This document shows, one piece after another, positions 28,411-40,020 of a stretch of DNA of 64,000 nucleotides (position 1 is the stretch's first letter; each line of letters starts with the position of its first letter). The notes under the pieces are model-generated. The model made no database searches. It saw only the letters and a program-made list of their open reading frames with translations, and had not been told where the DNA came from. The stretch is from Escherichia phage AidaStucki_Bas93. The position numbers and the translations under genes are program-made. The DNA lies in sequence record PQ850593.1; one strand, given 5' to 3'.

Positions 28411-28830
28411 TGTTAATTTCCTTATTTAATTTGAAAGATTGTTGCTCTCTTTGAGCGGTTATGTATAATATACATTACGCTTATACCGATAAGAGTACTA
28501 TATAATATAAGTATCTTTGGTAGTAGATATAACACACTAGTAATGTATATATTGTATAGCTGATAAAGTTATTGCAGGCTTGTACATTGGGCAATTCATA
28601 GAATCCCTTGCAAGTACCGAAGGGCAGGAGCCACCTGCGAGATAAAAATAGAGAATTAAGGAATCCTTGATTTAGGTTGTAGGGACTCCTAGGGACTTTG
28701 ATTCTCTATTTAAAAGAATAAATAATTACTATATCTAATACTAAACAGACTGAAACAAAGATAAGAAACTTCTTATAAATACTCATTACTTATCATCTAA
28801 ATAGTTAACTAATCTCTGATATAAAGAAGT
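28411..28830 (-). promoter_or_regulatory. AT-rich intergenic region with repeated TGTATA-type elements (candidate promoter cluster)
   Basis: 420-bp non-coding gap upstream of ssb; three similar TA-rich elements at about 28455-28565 and a tandem AGGGACT(CCT)AGGGACT at about 28676-28695. Confidence 0.35.
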
Positions 28831-29947: not shown

Positions 29948-30139
29948 TTACATTGTATAAATTCGCATGATTGTACCACCATCAGCTTCAATAGTAGAAA
30001 CAACTTCATCTCGTTCTTCATCCGTGTACACTAGTACACTTTTAAACGAGCCAGTCACATCTGTGTACAAAATGTTGTACTTGGGAGGTGGTTTACGGTA
30101 AATACCTTCCATCATTCTTTCTCCTCTCGTTCTTTCCAC
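29948..30139 (-). CDS. hypothetical small protein
   Basis: 63-aa ORF. Confidence 0.3.
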   Translation of the reverse strand: MERTRGERMMEGIYRKPPPKYNILYTDVTGSFKSVLVYTDEERDEVVSTIEADGGTIMRIYTM

Positions 30140-30309
30140 AGTTCAGCAAGCTCTAGGTAGAACTCAGCTTCATCAGGACGTCCTTGTTCATTACAGATGG
30201 CGCTTTGACGATAACACCAATCCGATGGCATCTCTTCCACTTCAATCTCCTTGTTATGAACTAATCAATAAGACTAGTTCATTTGTATTTCAATCTTTCA
30301 GTTCTGAAT

Positions 30310-30803
30310 TTAGTGTGTATGCATCCAATTTAACCCAATCTGACAATCAGAAGCCAGAGGACATTCCATGTTCAAGTACTCACCAGCCTTCTTAACACAA
30401 AGCTCGGTGTACTCTTTGAGTTTCTGTACATCATTACGGTTCACTGAGAACTGGCCCTCATCGTGCATATCAATTACCTTAGCACAACGAACTCCATCTT
30501 TCTCAATCCACTTGTTAAGGAACATCATAGCATATTTCATAACAACAGCACCAGCACATTGCAGGAGTGTGTTAAGGGCTTTATGAACCATAACCTTACC
30601 AGTGGCATCCCGTCTCATTGTAATCTTACGACCATCAACGCCAATCAAATACCCTTGAGCAGCTTTCTCTGTCATACGATCAATGAGGATTGCAATACAT
30701 GGGTTCTCTGCCAAGAAGCGTGCTCGCATCACTGAACCTTCGTCAGCTCCACCACCTACGATTGAACCAAGTTTAGCATCACCAGCACCATAGTTAAACG
30801 CAT
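30310..30803 (-). CDS. DNA polymerase (family A, T7-like), 3' exon; 5' boundary is approximate
   Basis: Translates to ...NYGAGDAKLGSIVGG...GVDGRKITMR...ALNTLLQCAG...MHDEGQF...NWMHTH, in line with the T7 gp5 C-terminus; the frame is open upstream of the track start to a TGA at 30805-30807. Confidence 0.6.
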
Positions 30804-31509
30804 CTCATATATTCGACAAGAGCCGCAACACTCTCGCCCGTTCTCTTATGAACTGCTACATGTCGCCATGTAGGATAGACTATATCATCACCCTCTATCG
30901 AGGGGTTGGGCGCTTCCACCGGCATTAGCTTCCGGCGTACTCCTTTCGGATAGTCGTTGCACCTTCAAGTATTCTATAGCTGTTTCTAATCGGCTAACAT
31001 CATCTTTCAATAGCCCTAAAGCTCTGTTGCAGTTGTGACACAACAGACCGCGTATTACTCCGGATTCATGGCAATGATCAACCACAAGTTTAATTCTGTG
31101 ATGTGTTGCCATTACAAACCCTTCGCCCTTACAGATAGCACACTTCCCATCCTGATCAGCGTACATCTTTTCGTAATCGCTGGCTGTGATTCCATAAATT
31201 CGTTTGAAGTAGGAATTTCTCCAGCCCCTATCTTTGCATTCATCAGAGCAATAATGTTCAGATGGTGCATTTGGTTGAAAATCTTTTGAGCAATTACGAC
31301 AAGGTTTTGGATTGAACCGACCTTGAGGGTATTTACTTGCCTCAGCAGTCTGTTCTTCTTTAGTTTTAGTTACAGTTGTATATTCCATAAGCACCTCCAT
31401 GTTGAGTTGCTATAGAATACTTGCTTGGCTCAGGATTGTCTACTAGAGAGTTTCCCTGAGTTCACCCAATTTAATCGACGAGATTACTCTCGAAGTATCC
31501 ATTTACGTC
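30804..31509 (-). mobile_element. putative group I intron in the DNA polymerase gene, carrying an HNH homing endonuclease ORF
   Basis: About 700 nt interrupt the polymerase frame inside motif B (KTFI | YAFNYGAG); upstream exon ends in U, insertion begins with in-frame UGA, candidate guide GGAUA can pair with exon UAUCU, last base is G. Confidence 0.5.
30888..31400 (-). CDS. intron-encoded HNH homing endonuclease
   Basis: HNH core DGKCAICKGEGFVMATHHRIKLVVDHCHESGVIRGLLCHNCNRALG. Confidence 0.7.
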   Translation of the reverse strand: MEVLMEYTTVTKTKEEQTAEASKYPQGRFNPKPCRNCSKDFQPNAPSEHYCSDECKDRGWRNSYFKRIYGITASDYEKMYADQDGKCAICKGEGFVMATHHRIKLVVDHCHESGVIRGLLCHNCNRALGLLKDDVSRLETAIEYLKVQRLSERSTPEANAGGSAQPLDRG

Positions 31510-32860
31510 AGATAAACGTTTTAGCGTTGTCACGAGTAGGAAGACCAGCAAGTTTCTGGTTGTGGGAGTGGATATCACCTTCAAGAAGGATATCACGATA
31601 CATAATAGCAGAAGCTAAACCACGTTCTGCCAGAGCTTTCTTAGCTGGATTATTCTCTTCGATTGCTTCAGCAAGCATATCCCTACACTCTTTAATGAGG
31701 TAGTGAGCGAGCATACGAAGTTCAAGTCCAGAACCATCATACCCTAAGAATACTTCTTTACCAGCGGGTATGTAATATTTGTAAGCACCTACAGGCTTAT
31801 CTTTCTTCCCCGGCTTACCTTTCTCGTAAATTACGTTAGTACCTTTTCGTATATAACAACCATCAGGAACAACGTTAGTAATAACGAAAGGACGAGAGTG
31901 ATCACTGTCTGAATTATAGTCAGACTCAAACAAACTGCGACACTCATGACCAAACAAACCACGAGAGGGAATATTAACCACGATACGATGTTTGAATCGA
32001 AAAGTTGGCGTAGCGCAGCTGTTAGCTTCTGCCGAAAGTTTACCATCTTCGCGTTCCTTTGCTATGAGTCCACTGATAAGACCTAGCCTGTGAGCCGCTA
32101 CAACGCGCCTCTTAAGCAAACTTCCAACACTCCCTAGCTCGCCCCCTAACCCTTCTTCAAGAGTCTCCTCGAGGTTTGTAGGAGCTGTAGGCCACTTGTT
32201 TGAGGTAGCTAGTGCTATCTTAATCTCATCAAACGTGATAGGTCTACGTCGGTTAGGGTTTAAACCTAAACCAAACACATAAGCCTTCATATAGTTCTTA
32301 GTCTTAAACCTAAAATGCTTCTCTAAGAACCTCCTAATATCTGCGTCAACCATCTCGGCTGTCTGCTTCTGTTTAGCATTACCTCGCATCCAAGCTGAAT
32401 ACCACGCTTGGTATGTTCCATACTTTCGTATATCTTTCTTGATTTCAAAAGTATTCCAAGGTTTCTTTGATACGTTAAACTCTGGAGGAAGAAAACCCTC
32501 ATCCATAAGGGCTTCTTTAACTCGTGCATCTTTCGATGGGTCAAAGTCCACGTATTCAACACAGGTGAATGCTCCACCAATGTCTTCTCTCTTAAGGCCA
32601 ACTCTATCACAATAGGCTTGAGGCCACTTCTGTAAAGCTCCAGACTTCTTAAATGGCTTCATATAAGTAGAGCCATCTAATCTCATCTTAGGTAAGAGAG
32701 GGATCAGTTCTTTGTCGATATTAACAATAATCTCTTTAAGGAGGTGAACATACCACCGAGCATTTCTTCGGTTGAAACTCACTCCGTGCTTCGCTTGCTT
32801 AGAGATTATATCAGCGACAGTCATCTCTGTCAAAAATGGGAGAGCGTCCGGGTTGCTCAC
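31510..32860 (-). CDS. DNA polymerase (family A, T7-like), 5' exon with motif A
   Basis: Motif A LGYDGSGLELRMLAHY and pre-motif-B LEGDIHSHNQKLAGLPTRDNAKTFI; ends at TGA immediately after KTFI. Confidence 0.75.
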
Positions 32861-32876
32861 TTTATACTCCTTTAAA

Positions 32877-33299
32877 TTATTGGTAAAGTAAATCTGTAAA
32901 TGCTTGGTTGTCTTCTACTACATCTAACAAGGTTGCTTCGTTACTATAAGACCTAACCGTCCCGTTGACAACTGTCCGAGTAGGAGAGGGAGGTGGTGTA
33001 TGGTTAGCCCTAGCTTCGCGAGGTTGCTCTCGTACTAAATGAGCCATAGCCATTTGGTTAGCGACTTCTTCTCTTTCTCGAATAGCTCTCTGAATATAAG
33101 CTAGCTTCATGCCCCAAGCTTCTTCAAATTCTTGAGGATGTTTGTCACTGATAACCACATATTGACGTTCAGGGATACCAGAGCGAATCTCTGATAAGAG
33201 TTCACAGAACAAATCCAGTTCGTGTTCAGTGAGATTCATTTCGATATCATCCCACTTGAGAACTAGGAAACGGTTTTGATATCTAGTCGGTAATGACAT
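32877..33299 (-). CDS. hypothetical protein
   Basis: 140-aa ORF with Pro-rich C-terminal segment. Confidence 0.4.
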   Translation of the reverse strand: MSLPTRYQNRFLVLKWDDIEMNLTEHELDLFCELLSEIRSGIPERQYVVISDKHPQEFEEAWGMKLAYIQRAIREREEVANQMAMAHLVREQPREARANHTPPPSPTRTVVNGTVRSYSNEATLLDVVEDNQAFTDLLYQ

Positions 33300-33302
33300 A
33301 GC

Positions 33303-33557
33303 TTAACCTTTAGGGAATGGGATGAGGTTTTCTACTGCAACACGGAATTCTTTCTCTACATCTTTATTCTTATAAGAAATGAATTTCCCATCAGTACCAC
33401 GGAGGATTACGTTAGTGCGAGCTGTTTTTGGGTTATGACTGATTTGGTTTGCAATGAGACTAATGTTGAGTTTAGTGTTGTGGTTATTGGTGAATTTCCA
33501 CTTAGCCAGACGATTAGTCATTACATCAATGATAGTTACAGTTTTTACAATAGACAT
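33303..33557 (-). CDS. hypothetical protein
   Basis: 84-aa ORF abutting the upstream gene. Confidence 0.35.
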   Translation of the reverse strand: MSIVKTVTIIDVMTNRLAKWKFTNNHNTKLNISLIANQISHNPKTARTNVILRGTDGKFISYKNKDVEKEFRVAVENLIPFPKG

Positions 33558-33591
33558 AGTTATTACCTAAGAAGTTTAGTTTGGTTTATAT

Positions 33592-33620
33592 AAAAGAAAA
33601 GGCCACCCATTTGGGTAGCC
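33592..33620 (-). terminator. rho-independent terminator
   Basis: On the minus strand: GGCTACCC-AAAT-GGGTGGCC followed by TTTTCTTTT. Confidence 0.55.
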
Positions 33621-33625
33621 TCATA

Positions 33626-33943
33626 TTACGATGAGCTTAAAGCTCCTTTGCGTGCTCCAGCTGCCTTCCCAGTTCGATCTCCACTTTTGCCGCCAGCTGA
33701 ACGATTTCCGCTGACTGTTTCAACACGTAAGTTGCTTGACGCATTAGAGCCTCCTGACTTGATAGCTCGTTTGTGTCCAACGTCTTTACCTCTGACAGCA
33801 GCTTTTCCATCGCGCTTTTCAACGATGCGACGTGCACGGTGGCGCTGAGCATCTCCGCTCTTGCTACCAATTCCCGTTTCACCCCTTGCGATGGCGGTAC
33901 GTCTTTCTTGTGCATAATCTCTCTTTCCTACATGGTCTGCCAT
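33626..33943 (-). CDS. highly basic Arg/Lys/Gly-rich protein
   Basis: 105 aa; strong SD (AAGGAGttctaaATG); preferred over the overlapping alternative-frame ORF 33637-33915. Confidence 0.4.
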   Translation of the reverse strand: MADHVGKRDYAQERRTAIARGETGIGSKSGDAQRHRARRIVEKRDGKAAVRGKDVGHKRAIKSGGSNASSNLRVETVSGNRSAGGKSGDRTGKAAGARKGALSSS

Positions 33944-34360
33944 TTAGAACTCCTTAATATATCAGTGTACACTAAGGAGTATACATTATGAATGATGTTA
34001 AAACTCTGCTAAGTATTTAATATCAGAGGCATATACCTCATCAAAGGAAATAACTTCTCCATTGTAAAGAAGTTCTATCTTCAATATACCAGAGCATTTG
34101 GTGTCTTTAGAATCAACCCTGATAGAGAGCTTATCAACTATCTGAGCTTTAATCTCTTCTATCATTAACTCTTGAGTGTTATTCACTCCACCCTCCCGGT
34201 GGTACAAAATCATCAGGAACGTCAATGATAGTAGGTTCTCCATTATTCATGCAGGTGTCTTCATTGAACTCTTCACACTCAAAGCATGCTCGTTCGATAT
34301 TTTTGTAGAAGTCGATGGTTGCTGAACCATCACCACAATCTCGGATAACTAGAGCTACTT

Positions 34361-35104
34361 TCATTTCTCTTGTCCTTTTTCCATTGCTTTAACAATAGCT
34401 TTACAGAAACCAGAACGAACAATGTCATCTGATTCACCATCTACAATCTCAGCGAACTCATACAGATCATGTTCATCAATAAAGTTAGTAGCCCAAGTAA
34501 GACCACTCTCACGACCACGCATGTCATGCTGGTTAGTATCACCCATGCAGAACAGTTGAGAGGTTTCTCCCAATCGAGTCATGATTGAGAAGGCTTCATC
34601 TTTAGTGGTGTTCTGGAATTCATCAACAATAACAACAGCATCATTGAAAGAACGACCACGGAGATATTCCAGAGGTACGAACTCAATATTACTGTTACCA
34701 AGCTGGCATTCATAGAACCCCTTACCATATCGCTGAGTAATAACATCGATGATAGGCATCAGGTATGGTTCAAACTTCTCACGCATCCCTCCCGGAAGTA
34801 ACCCAAGAGAGTTGCCCATACCAACTGAAGGACGGCTAAGAATGATCTTCTGAATCTTACCACTCTTCAGAGCATCGATAACTGTAGAAGTGATTACATA
34901 GGTCTTACCACAGCCCGCAGGAGCGTCTGTGAACACCACTTGTTTAGTCTTGATAGCATTGAGTAGCTCAGATTGAAACTGATTCTGAGGAACCACTGGC
35001 TTCGCTAAAACAACCTCTTCATACTCACGCTTACCTTTCTTAGTGACCAAGGCTTCACGACGTAAATCTTTACGAGATTCTCTACGGGACTGTCTACGGC
35101 TCAT
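34361..35104 (-). CDS. phoH: PhoH-like ATPase
   Basis: Walker A APAGCGKTYV plus PhoH signature LSRPSVGMGNSLGLLPGGMREKFEPYLMPI and VIVDEFQNTT. Confidence 0.85.
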   Translation of the reverse strand: MSRRQSRRESRKDLRREALVTKKGKREYEEVVLAKPVVPQNQFQSELLNAIKTKQVVFTDAPAGCGKTYVITSTVIDALKSGKIQKIILSRPSVGMGNSLGLLPGGMREKFEPYLMPIIDVITQRYGKGFYECQLGNSNIEFVPLEYLRGRSFNDAVVIVDEFQNTTKDEAFSIMTRLGETSQLFCMGDTNQHDMRGRESGLTWATNFIDEHDLYEFAEIVDGESDDIVRSGFCKAIVKAMEKGQEK

Positions 35105-35286
35105 TTGCGCTCTCCTAGCTCTTCGTAATTAAATACAGAGGTTCGACAATCTTTACATGTTGTTGTATAGACTCGAACATTAATGTACTTCTTGTTCTTC
35201 CCTTTGGTTGGAGAGCCTTTAGCAAGCTCTCTGATAACCTTGTTACTTGAGTGAAGGTTTGTGCCTTCGCATTTAGAGCACTTCAC
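35101..35286 (-). CDS. small zinc-ribbon protein
   Basis: 61 aa with CSKCEG ... CKDC pairs. Confidence 0.4.
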   Translation of the reverse strand: MKCSKCEGTNLHSSNKVIRELAKGSPTKGKNKKYINVRVYTTTCKDCRTSVFNYEELGERK

Positions 35287-35507
35287 TCAGGCTCACCAAC
35301 AGTAACTTCCCATACAACTTGAGAGATGATATTGTTGATCTGTTTGATTTGCTCGTAAGTCAGTTGCATACCTTTCATCTTCCGAGAGGCATTGCTTCGT
35401 GCTCTTCGCTGACGGTAGAAGTTATTCTTTTTAGTAGAGTGTAATCTACTCATTTCACAAGCTCCACTTCTTCAATACTGTACCCTTCAAAATACTCACC
35501 ATCTTGA

Positions 35508-35864
35508 TCATACTGGTTGATTGCTCTTGTTAGTACCCACACTTTCATTATTCTTCTCTTTATGAAGTCTATAAACAGCTGTCGCCATGCAAGCAACAGC
35601 TTCATTGTGTGGGAGATGCATCCCTGTAGAACCATCCCAATCTTTGAACTCATTGTCAAAGACTCCGGTAGGCTCTGGATACAGAGCTTGCAGCTCAACC
35701 AAATCATTAGCAACTTGTTGCCATTTATCATCAGACCAGATAGGGTCATCCAACCAGTAATACAAATAGGAATGGATGATTAATTGCCTTCTGTGCCGAT
35801 TAATTACTTCAGCGGGACTTATCTCACTTCCATTTGAAGTCCTAAATGTATTACTGTCAATCAT
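35508..35864 (-). CDS. small protein resembling NAD-dependent DNA ligase domain Ia
   Basis: HSYLYYWLDDPIWSDDKWQQVANDLVELQALYPEP parallels the LigA N-terminal Ia motif; only 118 aa, no adenylation domain. Confidence 0.45.
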   Translation of the reverse strand: MIDSNTFRTSNGSEISPAEVINRHRRQLIIHSYLYYWLDDPIWSDDKWQQVANDLVELQALYPEPTGVFDNEFKDWDGSTGMHLPHNEAVACMATAVYRLHKEKNNESVGTNKSNQPV

Positions 35865-35866
35865 GA

Positions 35867-36523
35867 TTAATTATTCCAAGTAGTTGATAAGGCTTTCCAA
35901 GAGATAGGATAAAGTTTCTTCATTTCTTCATCAATAGTTTGTGCAAACAGTCGGACCTCATACTGAGCGTGCTCTGACAGACGTTGACGGCACACATCTG
36001 ACCAGCCATATAGAGAGCCAGTCCACACCCACTCAGTGATCATCCCCTGAGGAAGAACAAATCGAGCTTGCTCTGGTGCAACAAATTCAATCAACTTATC
36101 ATATGCTGCTAGAGAGGATTCATATGCATCGTTAATCAGCATTAATGCTTCAGCTCGTTCTCCATCGATGAGTTGAATCCCTGAACCTGCATGGAGGTCC
36201 GAAGGTCTCGCAAAAATCTCTTTAGGGATGAAGACTTCAACTGCTCCATCTTTATACCGACGGGACATTTCGTTCCACGAGAATCCAACCTGATGCTTGC
36301 CCAGCTGTCTCGCAATTGCGATAGGTGCTTTGCATCGGAAACTGACTTGTGGGTGTCGGAATGGAGTAACATGCTTTTCTCTTGCGAGGAAGTTGATGAG
36401 ACGTTCATCACGTTCATTTAAATCACCTTCACGGGTTACGCCAAAGGAAACTCGAGCTGCGTTTACTACGCTACGATCACTTCCCATAGCTTCGATTAAT
36501 GTTGCTTGTAGTTGTTCATTCAT
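35867..36523 (-). CDS. thyX: ThyX-like (flavin-dependent) thymidylate synthase
   Basis: VVNAARVSFG and ...QLGKHQVGFSWNEMSRRY resemble the ThyX signature, but with K-H-Q where ThyX has RHR. Confidence 0.55.
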   Translation of the reverse strand: MNEQLQATLIEAMGSDRSVVNAARVSFGVTREGDLNERDERLINFLAREKHVTPFRHPQVSFRCKAPIAIARQLGKHQVGFSWNEMSRRYKDGAVEVFIPKEIFARPSDLHAGSGIQLIDGERAEALMLINDAYESSLAAYDKLIEFVAPEQARFVLPQGMITEWVWTGSLYGWSDVCRQRLSEHAQYEVRLFAQTIDEEMKKLYPISWKALSTTWNN

Positions 36524-36538
36524 CCGTGAATATCCTTA

Positions 36539-36814
36539 TTATTTATTGCTCAGTGCTGTGTCCAAAAATGCTTTCAGGTTTGCTTCAGTCTGCATACCAG
36601 AGAGGCTGTAATGTGCGCCACTATTCCGGTCAGGCACAACGAAAGCAGGAATGCTTCGTACACCATACTTAACAGCTTGTTCACGACCGTCACCCTCAAG
36701 GATATTAATCTCTTCCACTTCTACATCGAACTCCTTAACAACCTTCTCAAAGATAGGAGCCATTGCTTTACATGGAGCACACTGATCACTATAAAACTTA
36801 ATTACTTTAGACAT
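36539..36814 (-). CDS. thioredoxin-like protein
   Basis: CxxC active site in context FYSDQCAPCKAMAPIF and downstream IPAFVV (cis-Pro region). Confidence 0.7.
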   Translation of the reverse strand: MSKVIKFYSDQCAPCKAMAPIFEKVVKEFDVEVEEINILEGDGREQAVKYGVRSIPAFVVPDRNSGAHYSLSGMQTEANLKAFLDTALSNK

Positions 36815-36822
36815 GTAAATCC

Positions 36823-37002
36823 TTATGCAGTCAGGAGGTGAAGCAGGAATGGGATAACAACAGCTACGACAACCATGATAGTTGATGCTGTTTGAATCTC
36901 ACCTTTCTTGTCAGGGGTTTCTTCGATAAGCTTACCAGAAGCCCAATAGATACCACCACCAATAAAGATAGCCCAAATACCCCATACGATAGCTGATAAC
37001 AT
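36823..37002 (-). CDS. small membrane protein (59 aa, two hydrophobic segments)
   Basis: Below the track cut-off; ATG at 37002 with SD AAGGA; hydrophobic segments AIVWGIWAIFIGGGIYW and IMVVVAVVIPFLLHLL. Confidence 0.3.
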   Translation of the reverse strand: MLSAIVWGIWAIFIGGGIYWASGKLIEETPDKKGEIQTASTIMVVVAVVIPFLLHLLTA

Positions 37003-37023
37003 ATATCTATATCCTTATAAAGA

Positions 37024-37062
37024 GAAAACCCCGTCTATTCCTAGACAGGGCTTGAGTTTTTT
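37024..37062. terminator. hairpin terminator (possibly bidirectional)
   Basis: Stem CCCCGTCTA / TAGACAGGG with one mismatch; A-run on the 5' side, TTTTTT six nt after the 3' side. Confidence 0.4.
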
Positions 37063-37624
37063 AGTAAGACACATCACCACTTGAGTGGGACATGTTGCTC
37101 TTGACAAAGTAGCAATACTTGCCAAGACCTTCATTAATTTCTTGAAGCATACTTTGATCGACTGGATAAGTGGCTAAATCGCCATCAAACTCATCCATCT
37201 TCTCAATAATACACAACAAGGTCATGCACATATCAGAGAGCATACCGTCCATGTCTAGATCAGCGTTACCCTCTGAGAACCAAGCATGAGAGAGGTAGTT
37301 AGCTGCTGTAGCATCCACTTTAACACAGTGGTAACGCATACGTTCAGCAATACGATCTCCTACTTGTCGTGCGTAATCTTCCAGCTCGTCAAACATACCA
37401 TGAACACCCTGAAATCCTGCACCAGAGACGTTCCAGTGGTAGTTTTTAGCTTTGATGTGCAAGAGTTCCATATTAGCTTGTAAGCAGCTCAGGATGTGTT
37501 CTAGGCTGTTTCCGCTAATCATGCCTTGCATTGTTTCAAGGCGAGAGATTGAAAGCTCAGACCGGTCTAACATGCTGTAGCTGTCACGACCAATCTCAGG
37601 TAAATCAAAGACATTCTTATGCAT
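37061..37624 (-). CDS. Dps-like ferritin-fold protein
   Basis: KNYHWNVSGAGFQGVHGMFDELEDYARQVGDRIAER matches the Dps pattern; start placed at ATG 37624 after SD GGAG. Confidence 0.55.
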   Translation of the reverse strand: MHKNVFDLPEIGRDSYSMLDRSELSISRLETMQGMISGNSLEHILSCLQANMELLHIKAKNYHWNVSGAGFQGVHGMFDELEDYARQVGDRIAERMRYHCVKVDATAANYLSHAWFSEGNADLDMDGMLSDMCMTLLCIIEKMDEFDGDLATYPVDQSMLQEINEGLGKYCYFVKSNMSHSSGDVSY

Positions 37625-37946
37625 TTGGGTTTTCTCCATCAAGTTCAACTGAGTTAGCAACGTTACGTGCAATATTGTCCATTACCTGCTGGGTAATTAC
37701 GATGCAGTTCTGTGGGTCTACTGACTTAGAACGCCCCATTTCTGGGTCATACACCTTAACACGCTTAGCAGTTGAACCTGTAACCTGAAGAACCTTCAAC
37801 AGATATCCCTGATTACCGATAGACCAAGCAACAACATCACGATTCTTGATAAAGCGACCAAGCATATCACGATGATAAAACTGTTGCATCACCTTGGATT
37901 TTGTAATCTCTTCAGTGGGCGGGGCCACTTTACTCAAATCTAACAT
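37617..37946 (-). CDS. hypothetical protein
   Basis: 109-aa ORF overlapping the next gene start by 8 nt. Confidence 0.35.
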   Translation of the reverse strand: MLDLSKVAPPTEEITKSKVMQQFYHRDMLGRFIKNRDVVAWSIGNQGYLLKVLQVTGSTAKRVKVYDPEMGRSKSVDPQNCIVITQQVMDNIARNVANSVELDGENPNA

Positions 37947-38228
37947 AACTCTCTCCTGTAAAATACAAACTCTTATTGTACTCTATATACATTTGAGAGT
38001 TACCATATCTACTACCAATCAGTAGTGAACTTTTCCGCTAATATAAACACGACCAGAGGAATACTCTTTGGCCTTATGGATACTGATACTCTTAGTTAAA
38101 TCTGTATTGAACATAGACTTTTTAAAATCTCGAGCCTGTTGACGAGTAGGAAGTGCAGTCATGGTCATACCACCTGATGCCCACTTAATCTTTGCTAACC
38201 AAAACTGTCTCATAATGATTGGCCTCAT

Positions 38229-38762
38229 TTACACACCTTTAGATGCAACTACACCTTCAGAGTTATTATAACGACCCTTCACTGCATAGGAATGCTCCCC
38301 TGCATGAGAGTGCTCAAACATGACCATCTGACCAACACGCATACCAGCACGAACTCGTAAGCTGTGGTGCTTTGTTACGTTATGAAATTCAAATGTCAGC
38401 TTACTGCTATTAAATCCAGCGTCTGCCCACCCAGCGTGGAGGTGGTTCAAACCACAACGAGCCATAGATGAACGCAGGACAAACAGGCTTGAAATGTTAT
38501 CTGGAAGGTTAAACTCCTCCATAGAGTGAGCCAAGAAGAACTGACCCGGAGTGATAACCAAACCCTCTTCAGGAATTTTTACTTCCTTCCACTGAAGATT
38601 CTCTTTCGCATCAATATCAACGATGCCATCAGCCTGTTCTTCAACAAGGATAGTATCACCAATACGGATATCCACACTAGCAGCGTTAACATACTTATGC
38701 TCCGCATCCAGATAGCCATTGTCAATTACATCATGCAGTTCAATACTTCCTAGTAAACTCAT
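38229..38762 (-). CDS. dcd: dCTP deaminase
   Basis: RSSMARCGL, GWADAGF...EFHN and C-terminal KGRYNNSEGVVASK parallel the Dcd signatures. Confidence 0.8.
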   Translation of the reverse strand: MSLLGSIELHDVIDNGYLDAEHKYVNAASVDIRIGDTILVEEQADGIVDIDAKENLQWKEVKIPEEGLVITPGQFFLAHSMEEFNLPDNISSLFVLRSSMARCGLNHLHAGWADAGFNSSKLTFEFHNVTKHHSLRVRAGMRVGQMVMFEHSHAGEHSYAVKGRYNNSEGVVASKGV

Positions 38763-38771
38763 TCTTATTCC

Positions 38772-40019
38772 TTAGTTGTTTGTTTCTATGTCAAAAGAGA
38801 ATCCACGACCCGCTTCATCGGCAAACCGAGCTGTATGGGTTTGAGGCTCTAATACTTCAGGGTTGTTAGCAATAAAGCGAGCGGCGAGATTATCTTCCAC
38901 ATCTTGACTAGAGGGCTGACGTGCGCTAACAGTTAAACCATTTGGTCGACCATTAGAACGTCTAGACAACCACTGCTCAAATGAATCACTAGTAACACCA
39001 AGAGCCTCTTCAAAAGATGTTCTACGAGTAGGGCTTACTCTTCGTGACTCTTGTGCTCGACGCATTGCAGGGGCTACAAACACCCCTTCAATTGCATTAT
39101 GTCGATTAGGTTCATCTTCCCGACCAAGGAGATCACCTCCTGCATTAGTTGTTAAGTTTGTCAACCCTTCAGACCAATACGCACGAATCTGGCTAGAGCC
39201 ATAAATGCTTGACATTAACTGAATCTCTTCATAAGGTATATCAAAGAATCGACTCATATCTCGGTTAACACAATACTGAGCACTTGTTGTATCCTCAATA
39301 AGAGCAACCTGACCCCGTTCGTTGACCAGATGACTAACCGGCTGAGGTGTGGGAAGGTGTCGAGTTTGGGCCATGTATTGATATGCAGCTGCTGGAGAGG
39401 AAAATCTCAACACTTGCGAGTTAGGCCACTTCTTGTGAACATACCTGATTTCACGACTAGAAACAACCACTGGACAAGGGGCGGTCATAGCCAAGTATCC
39501 ATGAGGGGTCATGAATAAGTTATCAAGAGTCATCGCACCACGGCACATCATAGGAAAATTATCCAATACCTCTTCAATAGAAGTAGGATAATTAAACATG
39601 AATTGGATACGAACACCATTCCACTGAAACTCAATAATATCAGTGAATGTTAATTGAGAACCCCCAGCATATGATTCGTTCGTAGCTTCAACAAGAAGAG
39701 ATGAATACTCAATATCTTGTGATTCAAGCCATTCCTTCACATTACTTTCAATCTCCCGTCCAAGCATTTGCCACTGCTCGGCTGGGATAAAGGTATTTCG
39801 AGTTCTTGGTGTTTGTCCTCTGACAATAAAGATATCAATGTCATGTGGAGCTATGTTATTAAGAACAGCATCACGAATAGCTCCACCAGTAATGATAGGG
39901 CAAATACCATCTGGAATCAAGTTGTTGTTAATCAACTGTTCAATGAAGTGACGACCAACAGTGATATCAGGTTGTTGAGCAACCTTATCTTCAATTCGGT
40001 TAATCGGGATAACAATCAT
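38772..40019 (-). CDS. nucleotidyltransferase-superfamily protein (CCA-adding / poly(A) polymerase-like head motif)
   Basis: ITGGAIRDAVLNNIAPHDIDIFIV fits the GG.(V/I)RD...D.D signature; ATG at 40019 sits 2 nt after the exonuclease stop. Confidence 0.45.
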   Translation of the reverse strand: MIVIPINRIEDKVAQQPDITVGRHFIEQLINNNLIPDGICPIITGGAIRDAVLNNIAPHDIDIFIVRGQTPRTRNTFIPAEQWQMLGREIESNVKEWLESQDIEYSSLLVEATNESYAGGSQLTFTDIIEFQWNGVRIQFMFNYPTSIEEVLDNFPMMCRGAMTLDNLFMTPHGYLAMTAPCPVVVSSREIRYVHKKWPNSQVLRFSSPAAAYQYMAQTRHLPTPQPVSHLVNERGQVALIEDTTSAQYCVNRDMSRFFDIPYEEIQLMSSIYGSSQIRAYWSEGLTNLTTNAGGDLLGREDEPNRHNAIEGVFVAPAMRRAQESRRVSPTRRTSFEEALGVTSDSFEQWLSRRSNGRPNGLTVSARQPSSQDVEDNLAARFIANNPEVLEPQTHTARFADEAGRGFSFDIETNN

Positions 40020-40020
40020 T

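Follow-up and report, generated by a model that had tools for sequence, protein, structure and literature searches.

A Dps-family mini-ferritin with conserved ferroxidase ligands encoded among the middle genes of Escherichia phage AidaStucki_Bas93

Within the 64,000-nucleotide stretch of Escherichia phage AidaStucki_Bas93 that was analyzed here (sequence record PQ850593.1; hereafter, the window), the minus strand at positions 37,061 to 37,624 encodes a 187-residue protein that belongs, almost beyond doubt, to the Dps family of mini-ferritins and is the orthologue of gp67 of phage phiEco32. The initial annotation of this DNA had proposed a phage-encoded Dps-like protein with a ferritin fold, which is borne out by sequence profiles, the predicted fold and ferroxidase ligands that are conserved without exception. 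GenBank and published papers already contain the gene, its assignment to the Dps family and its conservation in prolate podophages. The phiEco32 record (EU330206) has listed phi32_67 since 2008 as a 'DNA-binding protein', adding in a note that it is a 'member of the Dps family'; the SU10 paper counted a DPS-domain protein, assigned to the middle class, among approximately eight coding sequences common to all sequenced C3 (prolate) podophages; and the Privateer paper reported a Dps homologue in CsCl-purified particles and called its function unverified. What is added here, as read from the sequences, is that the ferroxidase ligands are intact throughout the phage clade, that the cationic tail and two of three acidic pore positions have been lost, and that the gene has a conserved, translationally coupled partner gene and lies with it directly downstream of the counterpart of the middle promoter P68.

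Family assignment, predicted fold and ferroxidase site

A megablast search with positions 30,000 to 45,000 returned 134 phage records, the closest being Escherichia phages ManiMatter_Bas94, JacquesWildberger_Bas92 and LAMP (98–99% identity), followed by phiEco32 and other Kuravirus-like phages (approximately 92–93%), and the sequence of the window is thus that of a phiEco32-like (Kuravirus-type) coliphage. Orthologues of the Dps protein were found in 136 phage records. The open reading frame (ORF) begins with an ATG at 37,624 and ends with a stop codon at 37,063 to 37,061, and a putative GGAG ribosome-binding site lies 9 nucleotides (nt) 5′ of the ATG on the same strand (37,637 to 37,634), within the end of the upstream gene, gp68. 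The ATG is supported as the start because orthologues open with MH(K/N)N at the equivalent position. A longer version starting from a TTG at 37,672 (203 residues) was considered and rejected, since the orthologue N-termini, the ribosome-binding site and the coupling to gp68 all favor the ATG.

Several independent resources place the product in the Dps family. The Pfam family Ferritin (PF00210) matches it at 31 bits, above the gathering score of 24.5 (E 2.8e-7), over residues 55–107 only, and PHROG 3636 matches it with an E-value of 1.7e-54. A phmmer search against all chains of the PDB retrieved 59 distinct sequences at E ≤ 1, nearly all of which were Dps-family proteins; the best E-value was 2.8e-9, and the leading matches (E approximately 3e-9 to 2e-8) were Mycobacterium smegmatis Dps2, Bacillus subtilis MrgA and Bacillus anthracis Dlp-2. 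At the level of sequence, the similarity to the Dps family far exceeds what chance would be expected to produce.

The predicted structure is that of a Dps subunit. A monomer model was built with AlphaFold2 from an alignment of 64 sequences, with a mean predicted local distance difference test score (pLDDT) of 88.7 and helices at residues 41–65 (A), 71–98 (B), 107–112 (a short helix in the B–C loop), 125–146 (C) and 154–176 (D). The model thus has the Dps topology of a four-helix bundle with a short B–C loop helix and without a fifth, E helix; an additional helix is modeled with lower confidence at residues 22–37, in an N-terminal extension whose pLDDT is 57–73. All of the 50 best Foldseek matches in the PDB were Dps proteins, with root-mean-square deviations of 1.1–1.6 Å over approximately 135 residues and TM-target (template modeling) scores of up to 0.92. 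A classical 24-meric ferritin or bacterioferritin was rejected in view of the absence of such proteins from these 50 matches, the intersubunit type of the ligands and the lack of a helix after D, and an unrelated four-helix family, which the initial annotation had named as a possible outcome, was set aside because of the same uniform matches and a ligand pattern of the Dps type.

The ferroxidase site appears to be complete. Residues 58–97 of the ORF read KAKNYHWNVSGAGFQGVHGMFDELEDYARQVGDRIAERMR, which is the motif that the initial annotation had quoted as a match to the Dps ferroxidase region, and this segment, comprising the end of helix A and part of helix B (codons at 37,334 to 37,453, minus strand), carries all five predicted ligands (H63, H75, D79, D90 and E94), identified by invariance and ligand mapping, together with the adjacent W64. 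These six residues are 100% conserved in 35 phage-clade homologues that diverge to approximately 36% identity. The ligands align to H51/H63/D67/D78/E82 of Escherichia coli Dps and H31/H43/D47/D58/E62 of Listeria innocua Dps; in both reference sequences, the ligands carry the expected residue numbers. The profile search and the ligand comparison that had been suggested as checks therefore both turned out in favor of the proposal. The gene is also under strong purifying selection, with a ratio of nonsynonymous to synonymous substitution rates (dN/dS) of 0.02 against phiEco32 and approximately 0.05 against ECBP2 (for which dS is saturated).

In GenBank, the orthologues are labeled 'integrase' in many Kuravirus-like genomes (including IME267, DE5 and YW01) and 'ferric iron binding protein' in a few; EcoN5, 172-1 and KBNP1711 are further examples of such records. 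Identity as a tyrosine or serine integrase was rejected, as the protein has no recombinase domain, its only Pfam match is Ferritin and its predicted fold is that of Dps; the 'integrase' label is a propagated annotation error. Such a label could make phages that are candidates for therapy look temperate.

Divergence from cellular Dps and the question of DNA binding

Despite the intact ferroxidase ligands, the phage protein departs in several respects from textbook Dps. It is acidic (isoelectric point, pI, 4.7; net charge −15), and its 40-residue N-terminal extension (codons at 37,505 to 37,624, minus strand; delimited from orthologue N-termini, charge count, the AlphaFold2 model and alignment) has a net charge of −2 with a single lysine, while that of the C-terminal tail is −1; in the Kuravirus-like clade as a whole, tail charges range from −2 to +1. 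The Lys/Arg-rich flexible tail of DNA-binding Dps proteins of the E. coli type is thus absent. The extension instead has a conserved MHNNxFDLP start and an invariant R28 within the predicted helix 22–37. Other differences include Y172 in place of the invariant tryptophan of helix D, a clade-specific W115-F116 pair and a Cys/Met-rich helix C with D131-M132-C133-M134.

These features bear on whether the protein covers phage DNA or compacts the host nucleoid in the manner of E. coli Dps in stationary phase. Membership in the Dps family and the wording of most GenBank records ('DNA-binding') would favor such a function, as would the location of the gene among DNA-metabolism genes; moreover, the predicted extra N-terminal helix with its invariant arginine may recall the N-terminal helix of Lactococcus lactis Dps, which is reported to be needed for DNA binding. 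However, that helix is modeled at low confidence in the phage protein, both tails are short of lysine and close to neutral or negative, and several well-studied Dps proteins that lack cationic tails do not bind DNA. Because the protein has no cationic tail, direct DNA coating is regarded as distinctly unlikely, and the comparison with a Dps that coats DNA, drawn in the initial annotation, finds no support in the pI or in either tail. The database label 'DNA-binding protein' is an inherited family name that the sequence does not support.

A profile built from the phage-clade sequences matched 7,879 proteins at E ≤ 0.001, and each of the 120 listed among these matches carries PF00210. The scores of phage-type sequences were 125 bits or higher and those of cellular Dps reached 82 bits at most, and in a representative library of 1.84 billion proteins only 7 clusters fell below 1e-30, compared with 3,417 at E ≤ 0.001. 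The match to E. coli Dps by phmmer reached only E 0.1–0.2, and the GC content of the gene equals that of the phage genome. On these grounds (the weak E. coli match, the gap between 125 and 82 bits, the 7 clusters and the GC content), a recent capture of a host dps gene was rejected. One metagenomic protein of 1156 residues (P0124), made up of approximately 20 tandem units of 58 residues, matches the part of the profile with the ferroxidase motif in 20 stretches (E 2e-24); it is probably a repeat or an assembly artefact rather than a Dps.

Coupled gene, promoter and neighborhood

The Dps gene is preceded by a gp68-like coding sequence of 109 residues (phrog_10984; 37,617 to 37,946, minus strand), whose stop and the Dps start share an 8-nt overlap, an arrangement that points to translational coupling of the two genes. 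Upstream, 40 nt 5′ of the gp68 ATG, a pattern match located the element AAATGTATA (37,994 to 37,986, minus strand), the likely counterpart of the phiEco32 middle promoter P68. The element and the surrounding core are identical in phiEco32, and the 121-nt stretches of the two phages differ at 2 of approximately 95 aligned positions; the consensus of gp36-dependent promoters, tAATGTAtA with AATGTA centered near −11.5, is present at the level of sequence. P68 is one of six experimentally located promoters recognized by the phage sigma factor gp36 (PMC8948821), and it is activated approximately 3-fold by gp79 in vitro and was used for the cryo-electron microscopy (cryo-EM) structure of an open complex (PMC12276001). 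To judge from these elements, the gp68–Dps pair opens the P68 middle transcription unit. A scan for sigma-70 promoters around the Dps gene gave no more matches than shuffled sequence.

At the other end of the pair, 8 nt past the Dps stop, a consensus scan identified a 12-bp hairpin followed by UUUUCUCUUU (37,053 to 37,026, minus strand), with a predicted free energy (dG) of −17.8 kcal/mol and z = −3.6. Inverted-repeat arms are present at the same site in phiEco32 and ECBP2 despite sequence differences (aligned by eye), with a weaker U-tract. The hairpin resembles a terminator; rather than fully terminating transcription, it may attenuate it or stabilize the RNA.

The core of gp68 (residues 23–97) has a pI of 9.8, whereas that of the 12 C-terminal residues is 4.0. 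Homologues with 31–37% identity in pairwise comparisons (E 3e-16 to 2e-18) lie directly 5′ of the Dps gene, with overlapping start and stop, in P59 (Privateervirus) and LAh_9 (Lahexavirus), and a homologue is also present in 7-11. A tblastn search returned 130 phage records for gp68, spread over hosts in the same way as those of the Dps gene, and the match coordinates place it next to that gene also in GAP52, BUCT695 and the LAh phages. The AlphaFold2 model of gp68 (pLDDT 68) consists of five short strands flanked by helices. No Foldseek match fell below E 0.016, the weak ones all being to small barrels of the SH3-like type (ribosomal proteins with KOW motifs, PWWP and Tudor domains and the C-terminal domain of retroviral integrase), and Pfam, NCBIfam and PDB searches, including profile searches of PDB and Pfam, yielded no significant match.

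The idea that gp68 is a partner of Dps comes from the gene coupling. In its fuller form, gp68, as a basic small β-barrel with an acidic tail, would dock on the Dps shell and tether it to DNA or to another phage machine, a scenario that we consider rather unlikely. It is consistent with the overlap of the two genes in Kuravirus, Privateervirus and Lahexavirus, in which the Dps proteins share only 31–41% identity, with their matching host spectra and shared P68 promoter, with the opposite charges of the gp68 core and tail, and with the weak likeness of gp68 to SH3-like barrels, which in many cases are nucleic-acid binders. On the other hand, the two genes are 1.35 kb apart in the group of Salmonella phage 7-11, their co-occurrence may simply mean that both are core genes of the phage lineage, and the gp68 model is of low confidence and has no significant relative in fold or sequence. 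It is with considerable reserve that a tail-less Dps and gp68 may be thought of as a conserved module of two proteins, peculiar to prolate podophages, in which gp68 would target the shell to DNA, to the replication or deoxynucleoside triphosphate (dNTP) machinery or to the capsid. If this were true, targeting to the capsid would explain the detection of the Privateer homologue in virions, and a bacterial stress protein would have been adapted specifically to viral use instead of acting simply as an antioxidant.

The location of the gene had initially been described as a replication module. Replication genes are indeed present in this middle cluster, and the immediate surroundings are more exactly those of nucleotide metabolism: a 59-residue protein, thioredoxin and ThyX are encoded 3′ of the Dps gene, and dCTP deaminase, a nucleotidyltransferase, a polymerase exonuclease subunit and a primase/helicase 5′ of the gp68–Dps pair. 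Such a position among dNTP-metabolism genes is shared by four distant genera; the Dps gene directly follows ThyX in 7-11, has NrdG on one side and an ATP-cone protein on the other in LAh_9 and stands beside an NrdD-like fragment in P59.

Several further observations were made in the neighborhood and elsewhere in the window. Genes for anaerobic ribonucleotide reductase (NrdD and NrdG) and small stand-alone ATP-cone proteins flank the Dps gene in LAh_9 (L005 1–4701) and P59 (L004 4359–4694); no NrdD, NrdG or ATP-cone gene was found near the Dps gene of the window, nor does the annotation of Bas92, the nearest relative, show one in its first 50 kb. The 59-residue ORF (36,823 to 37,002, minus strand; phrog_9296), which lies between the Dps hairpin and thioredoxin, is hydrophobic by eye and may encode a membrane protein; it is kept in phiEco32 (gp66) and ECBP2. 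At 35,508 to 35,864 (minus strand), a 118-residue protein is confined to domain Ia, the NAD+-binding N-terminal part of an NAD-dependent DNA ligase (PF22745, E 2.5e-35). In relatives it carries the label 'DNA ligase', for which it is far too short, and it may modulate host LigA or sense NAD+. The nucleotidyltransferase (434 residues; 38,772 to 40,076, minus strand; phrog_12715) has no Pfam match, and a domain resembling class II CCA-adding enzymes was described for it in the SU10 paper. Five exact matches to TAATGTATA were also found, at 2007, 19,092 and 28,541 on the plus strand and at 28,469 and 33,980 on the minus strand, most of them at or just before ORF starts, where they fit the published consensus of those phiEco32 promoters, middle and late, that depend on gp36; those at 28,469 and 28,541 face apart at the boundary between the late and middle clusters. 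The comparison with shuffled sequence was made with one mismatch allowed, and the total of 17 was no more than shuffled sequence gave.

Proposed role, alternatives and comparison with known systems

By homology with cellular Dps, the protein would assemble into a dodecameric hollow shell, with ferroxidase centers at the subunit interfaces, to which one chain would contribute H63, H75 and D79 and the partner chain D90 and E94. These centers would oxidize Fe2+, and the resulting Fe3+ would be stored within the shell. Since hydrogen peroxide is the preferred oxidant of Dps proteins, both Fenton reagents, Fe2+ and H2O2, would be removed and less hydroxyl radical would form. Because the gp68–Dps pair is driven by P68, the protein would be made by means of the phage sigma factor gp36 in the middle period of infection, during the synthesis of phage DNA and dNTPs. 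In phiEco32, gp79 has by then shut off transcription by host sigma-70, and the host would presumably be without its own OxyR-dependent Dps and oxidative-stress response. From this middle timing and the host shut-off, a protective role follows as the preferred reading: it is somewhat probable that the protein shields replicating phage DNA and redox-sensitive enzymes of dNTP metabolism (ThyX and thioredoxin, and anaerobic ribonucleotide reductase in relatives) from damage by iron and peroxide. ThyX is a flavoenzyme and as such a plausible local source of peroxide. In addition, host dps, catalase and peroxiredoxin have been described in the literature as being among the most strongly induced host genes during infection by phage YerA41, which by analogy suggests that infection imposes oxidative stress.

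A number of observations weigh against this protective role. Of the acidic pore positions D121, D126 and D130 of L. innocua Dps, only the first is kept in the sequence alignment (D149, P154 and S158), an aspartate that is invariant in 29 of 29 aligned cellular relatives is replaced by Y153, and D156 is gained in the Kuravirus-like subclade; if the replacements at 153, 154 and 158 alter the pore, iron uptake could be slow or take another route. The NCBIfam equivalog models NF006975 (Dps), NF041388 and NF052461 (DpsA) give 34.5, 31.7 and 17.6 bits, respectively, against cut-offs of 114, 170 and 300, and to judge by sequence the phage protein constitutes a divergent, phage-specific Dps subfamily that is the equivalog of no curated bacterial Dps. 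The searchable literature yielded no biochemical or genetic test of a phage Dps. Phage 7-11 does not shut off its host and yet keeps the Dps gene (PMC8948821), so that replacement of a silenced host response is not a general explanation. Finally, the presence of the Privateer homologue in CsCl-purified virions hints at a different role.

This last observation, made by mass spectrometry (MS), leads to the view that Dps is associated with the virion, in or on the prolate capsid, where it would guard packaged DNA against iron-mediated damage in extracellular particles or come into action soon after ejection. The place of the gene among the approximately eight that are common to all C3 podophages could be seen in the same light, as could the occurrence in some uncultured phages of Dps-fold domains within larger 'prohead protease' proteins. 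In BFVD, three such proteins of uncultured Caudovirales (A0A6J7XDU5, A0A6J7WPK9 and A0A6J7WIS1; 333–763 residues) contain a Dps-fold domain (E 1e-5 to 8e-4); their architecture suggests delivery of a ferritin-like domain into procapsids, and capsid-targeted ferritin-like proteins may therefore exist elsewhere. Nevertheless, the Dps gene is a middle gene in a nucleotide-metabolism cluster, outside the late structural module, and a 12-mer approximately 9 nm across would presumably not pass the tail channel, and a dense, iron-loaded shell might band together with phage in CsCl. Cryo-EM and MS of purified SU10 virions reported gp20–24 as internal ejection proteins and did not mention Dps, only the major bands having been analyzed. 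We thus consider this view very unlikely, and a structural role for the phage protein is unlikely. MS of an SU10 lysate did detect the Dps protein, with 35.8% coverage (SU10 paper). Use of these data as evidence of a structural role was rejected, because the sample had only been precipitated with polyethylene glycol and also contained DNA polymerase, thioredoxin and other non-structural proteins, and the authors themselves warned that it would include middle-gene products; they indicate expression rather than incorporation.

The consistent linkage with nucleotide-metabolism genes, including the arrangement in LAh_9, where NrdG and an ATP-cone protein border the gene, could also be taken to mean that Dps is not an antioxidant but a reservoir or donor of iron for dNTP enzymes, such as the di-iron site of the host class I ribonucleotide reductase or, in relatives, the 4Fe-4S cluster of NrdG. 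Dps proteins are not known to donate iron to ribonucleotide reductase; moreover, no ribonucleotide reductase is annotated in the 50 kb examined of the window phage and its nearest relative, and the linkage may reflect only a shared timing of expression. This explanation is highly improbable.

With the protective role as the preferred reading, the wider meaning is that a whole lineage of strictly lytic prolate podophages keeps a mini-ferritin that looks catalytically intact, under strong purifying selection and behind a phage-sigma promoter, which implies that phage DNA synthesis, or the survival of particles, is limited by the chemistry of iron and peroxide to a degree that merits a gene. The analysis also corrects widespread database mislabels ('DNA binding protein' and 'integrase'). 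No new category of biology is opened, and a specialist would not be surprised by the result.

Among known systems, the closest is gp67 of phiEco32 itself (phi32_67, ABY52868.1), which is 98.9% identical over 187 residues, with two amino-acid changes, and shares the same neighbors, the P68 element and the overlap with gene 68; orthologues are also present in SU10 (CDS67), Bas92, LAMP, Paul and other Kuravirus-like phages. The two phages differ in that the U-tract of the hairpin after the gene is better in the window than in phiEco32. Compared with the solved structures of cellular Dps proteins, namely, those of M. smegmatis Dps2 (2z90 and 4m35), MrgA (2chp), Dlp-2 (1jig), L. innocua Dps (1qgh) and E. 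coli Dps (1dps), the phage protein has in common the four-helix bundle with a BC helix (within the deviations given above), the intersubunit ferroxidase ligands and the adjacent tryptophan. However, it is only 20–27% identical to them and differs in its 40-residue non-cationic N-terminal extension, in the proline and serine at the positions of L. innocua D126 and D130 and in Tyr172 in place of the helix-D tryptophan.

The homologues in phages 7-11 (Salmonella), Privateer and P59 (Proteus), GAP52 (Cronobacter) and LAh (Aeromonas) belong to the same phage-specific clade, with the same ferroxidase ligands, a nucleotide-metabolism neighborhood and a gp68 homologue, but they show 31–45% identity and are shorter (approximately 146–156 residues). 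Those of the 7-11 group have N-terminal tails of approximately 10 residues with a net charge of approximately +3, and in 7-11 the homologue of gp68 lies apart from the Dps gene. More distant parallels are provided by myophages of Lactobacillus plantarum and by the gut 'Gratiaviridae', which also carry Dps or ferritin-like genes near DNA-metabolism genes and for which a role in limiting iron and peroxide damage has been proposed as a conjecture; these are unrelated phage lineages with other Dps subfamilies, and the BFVD matches show 17–22% identity.

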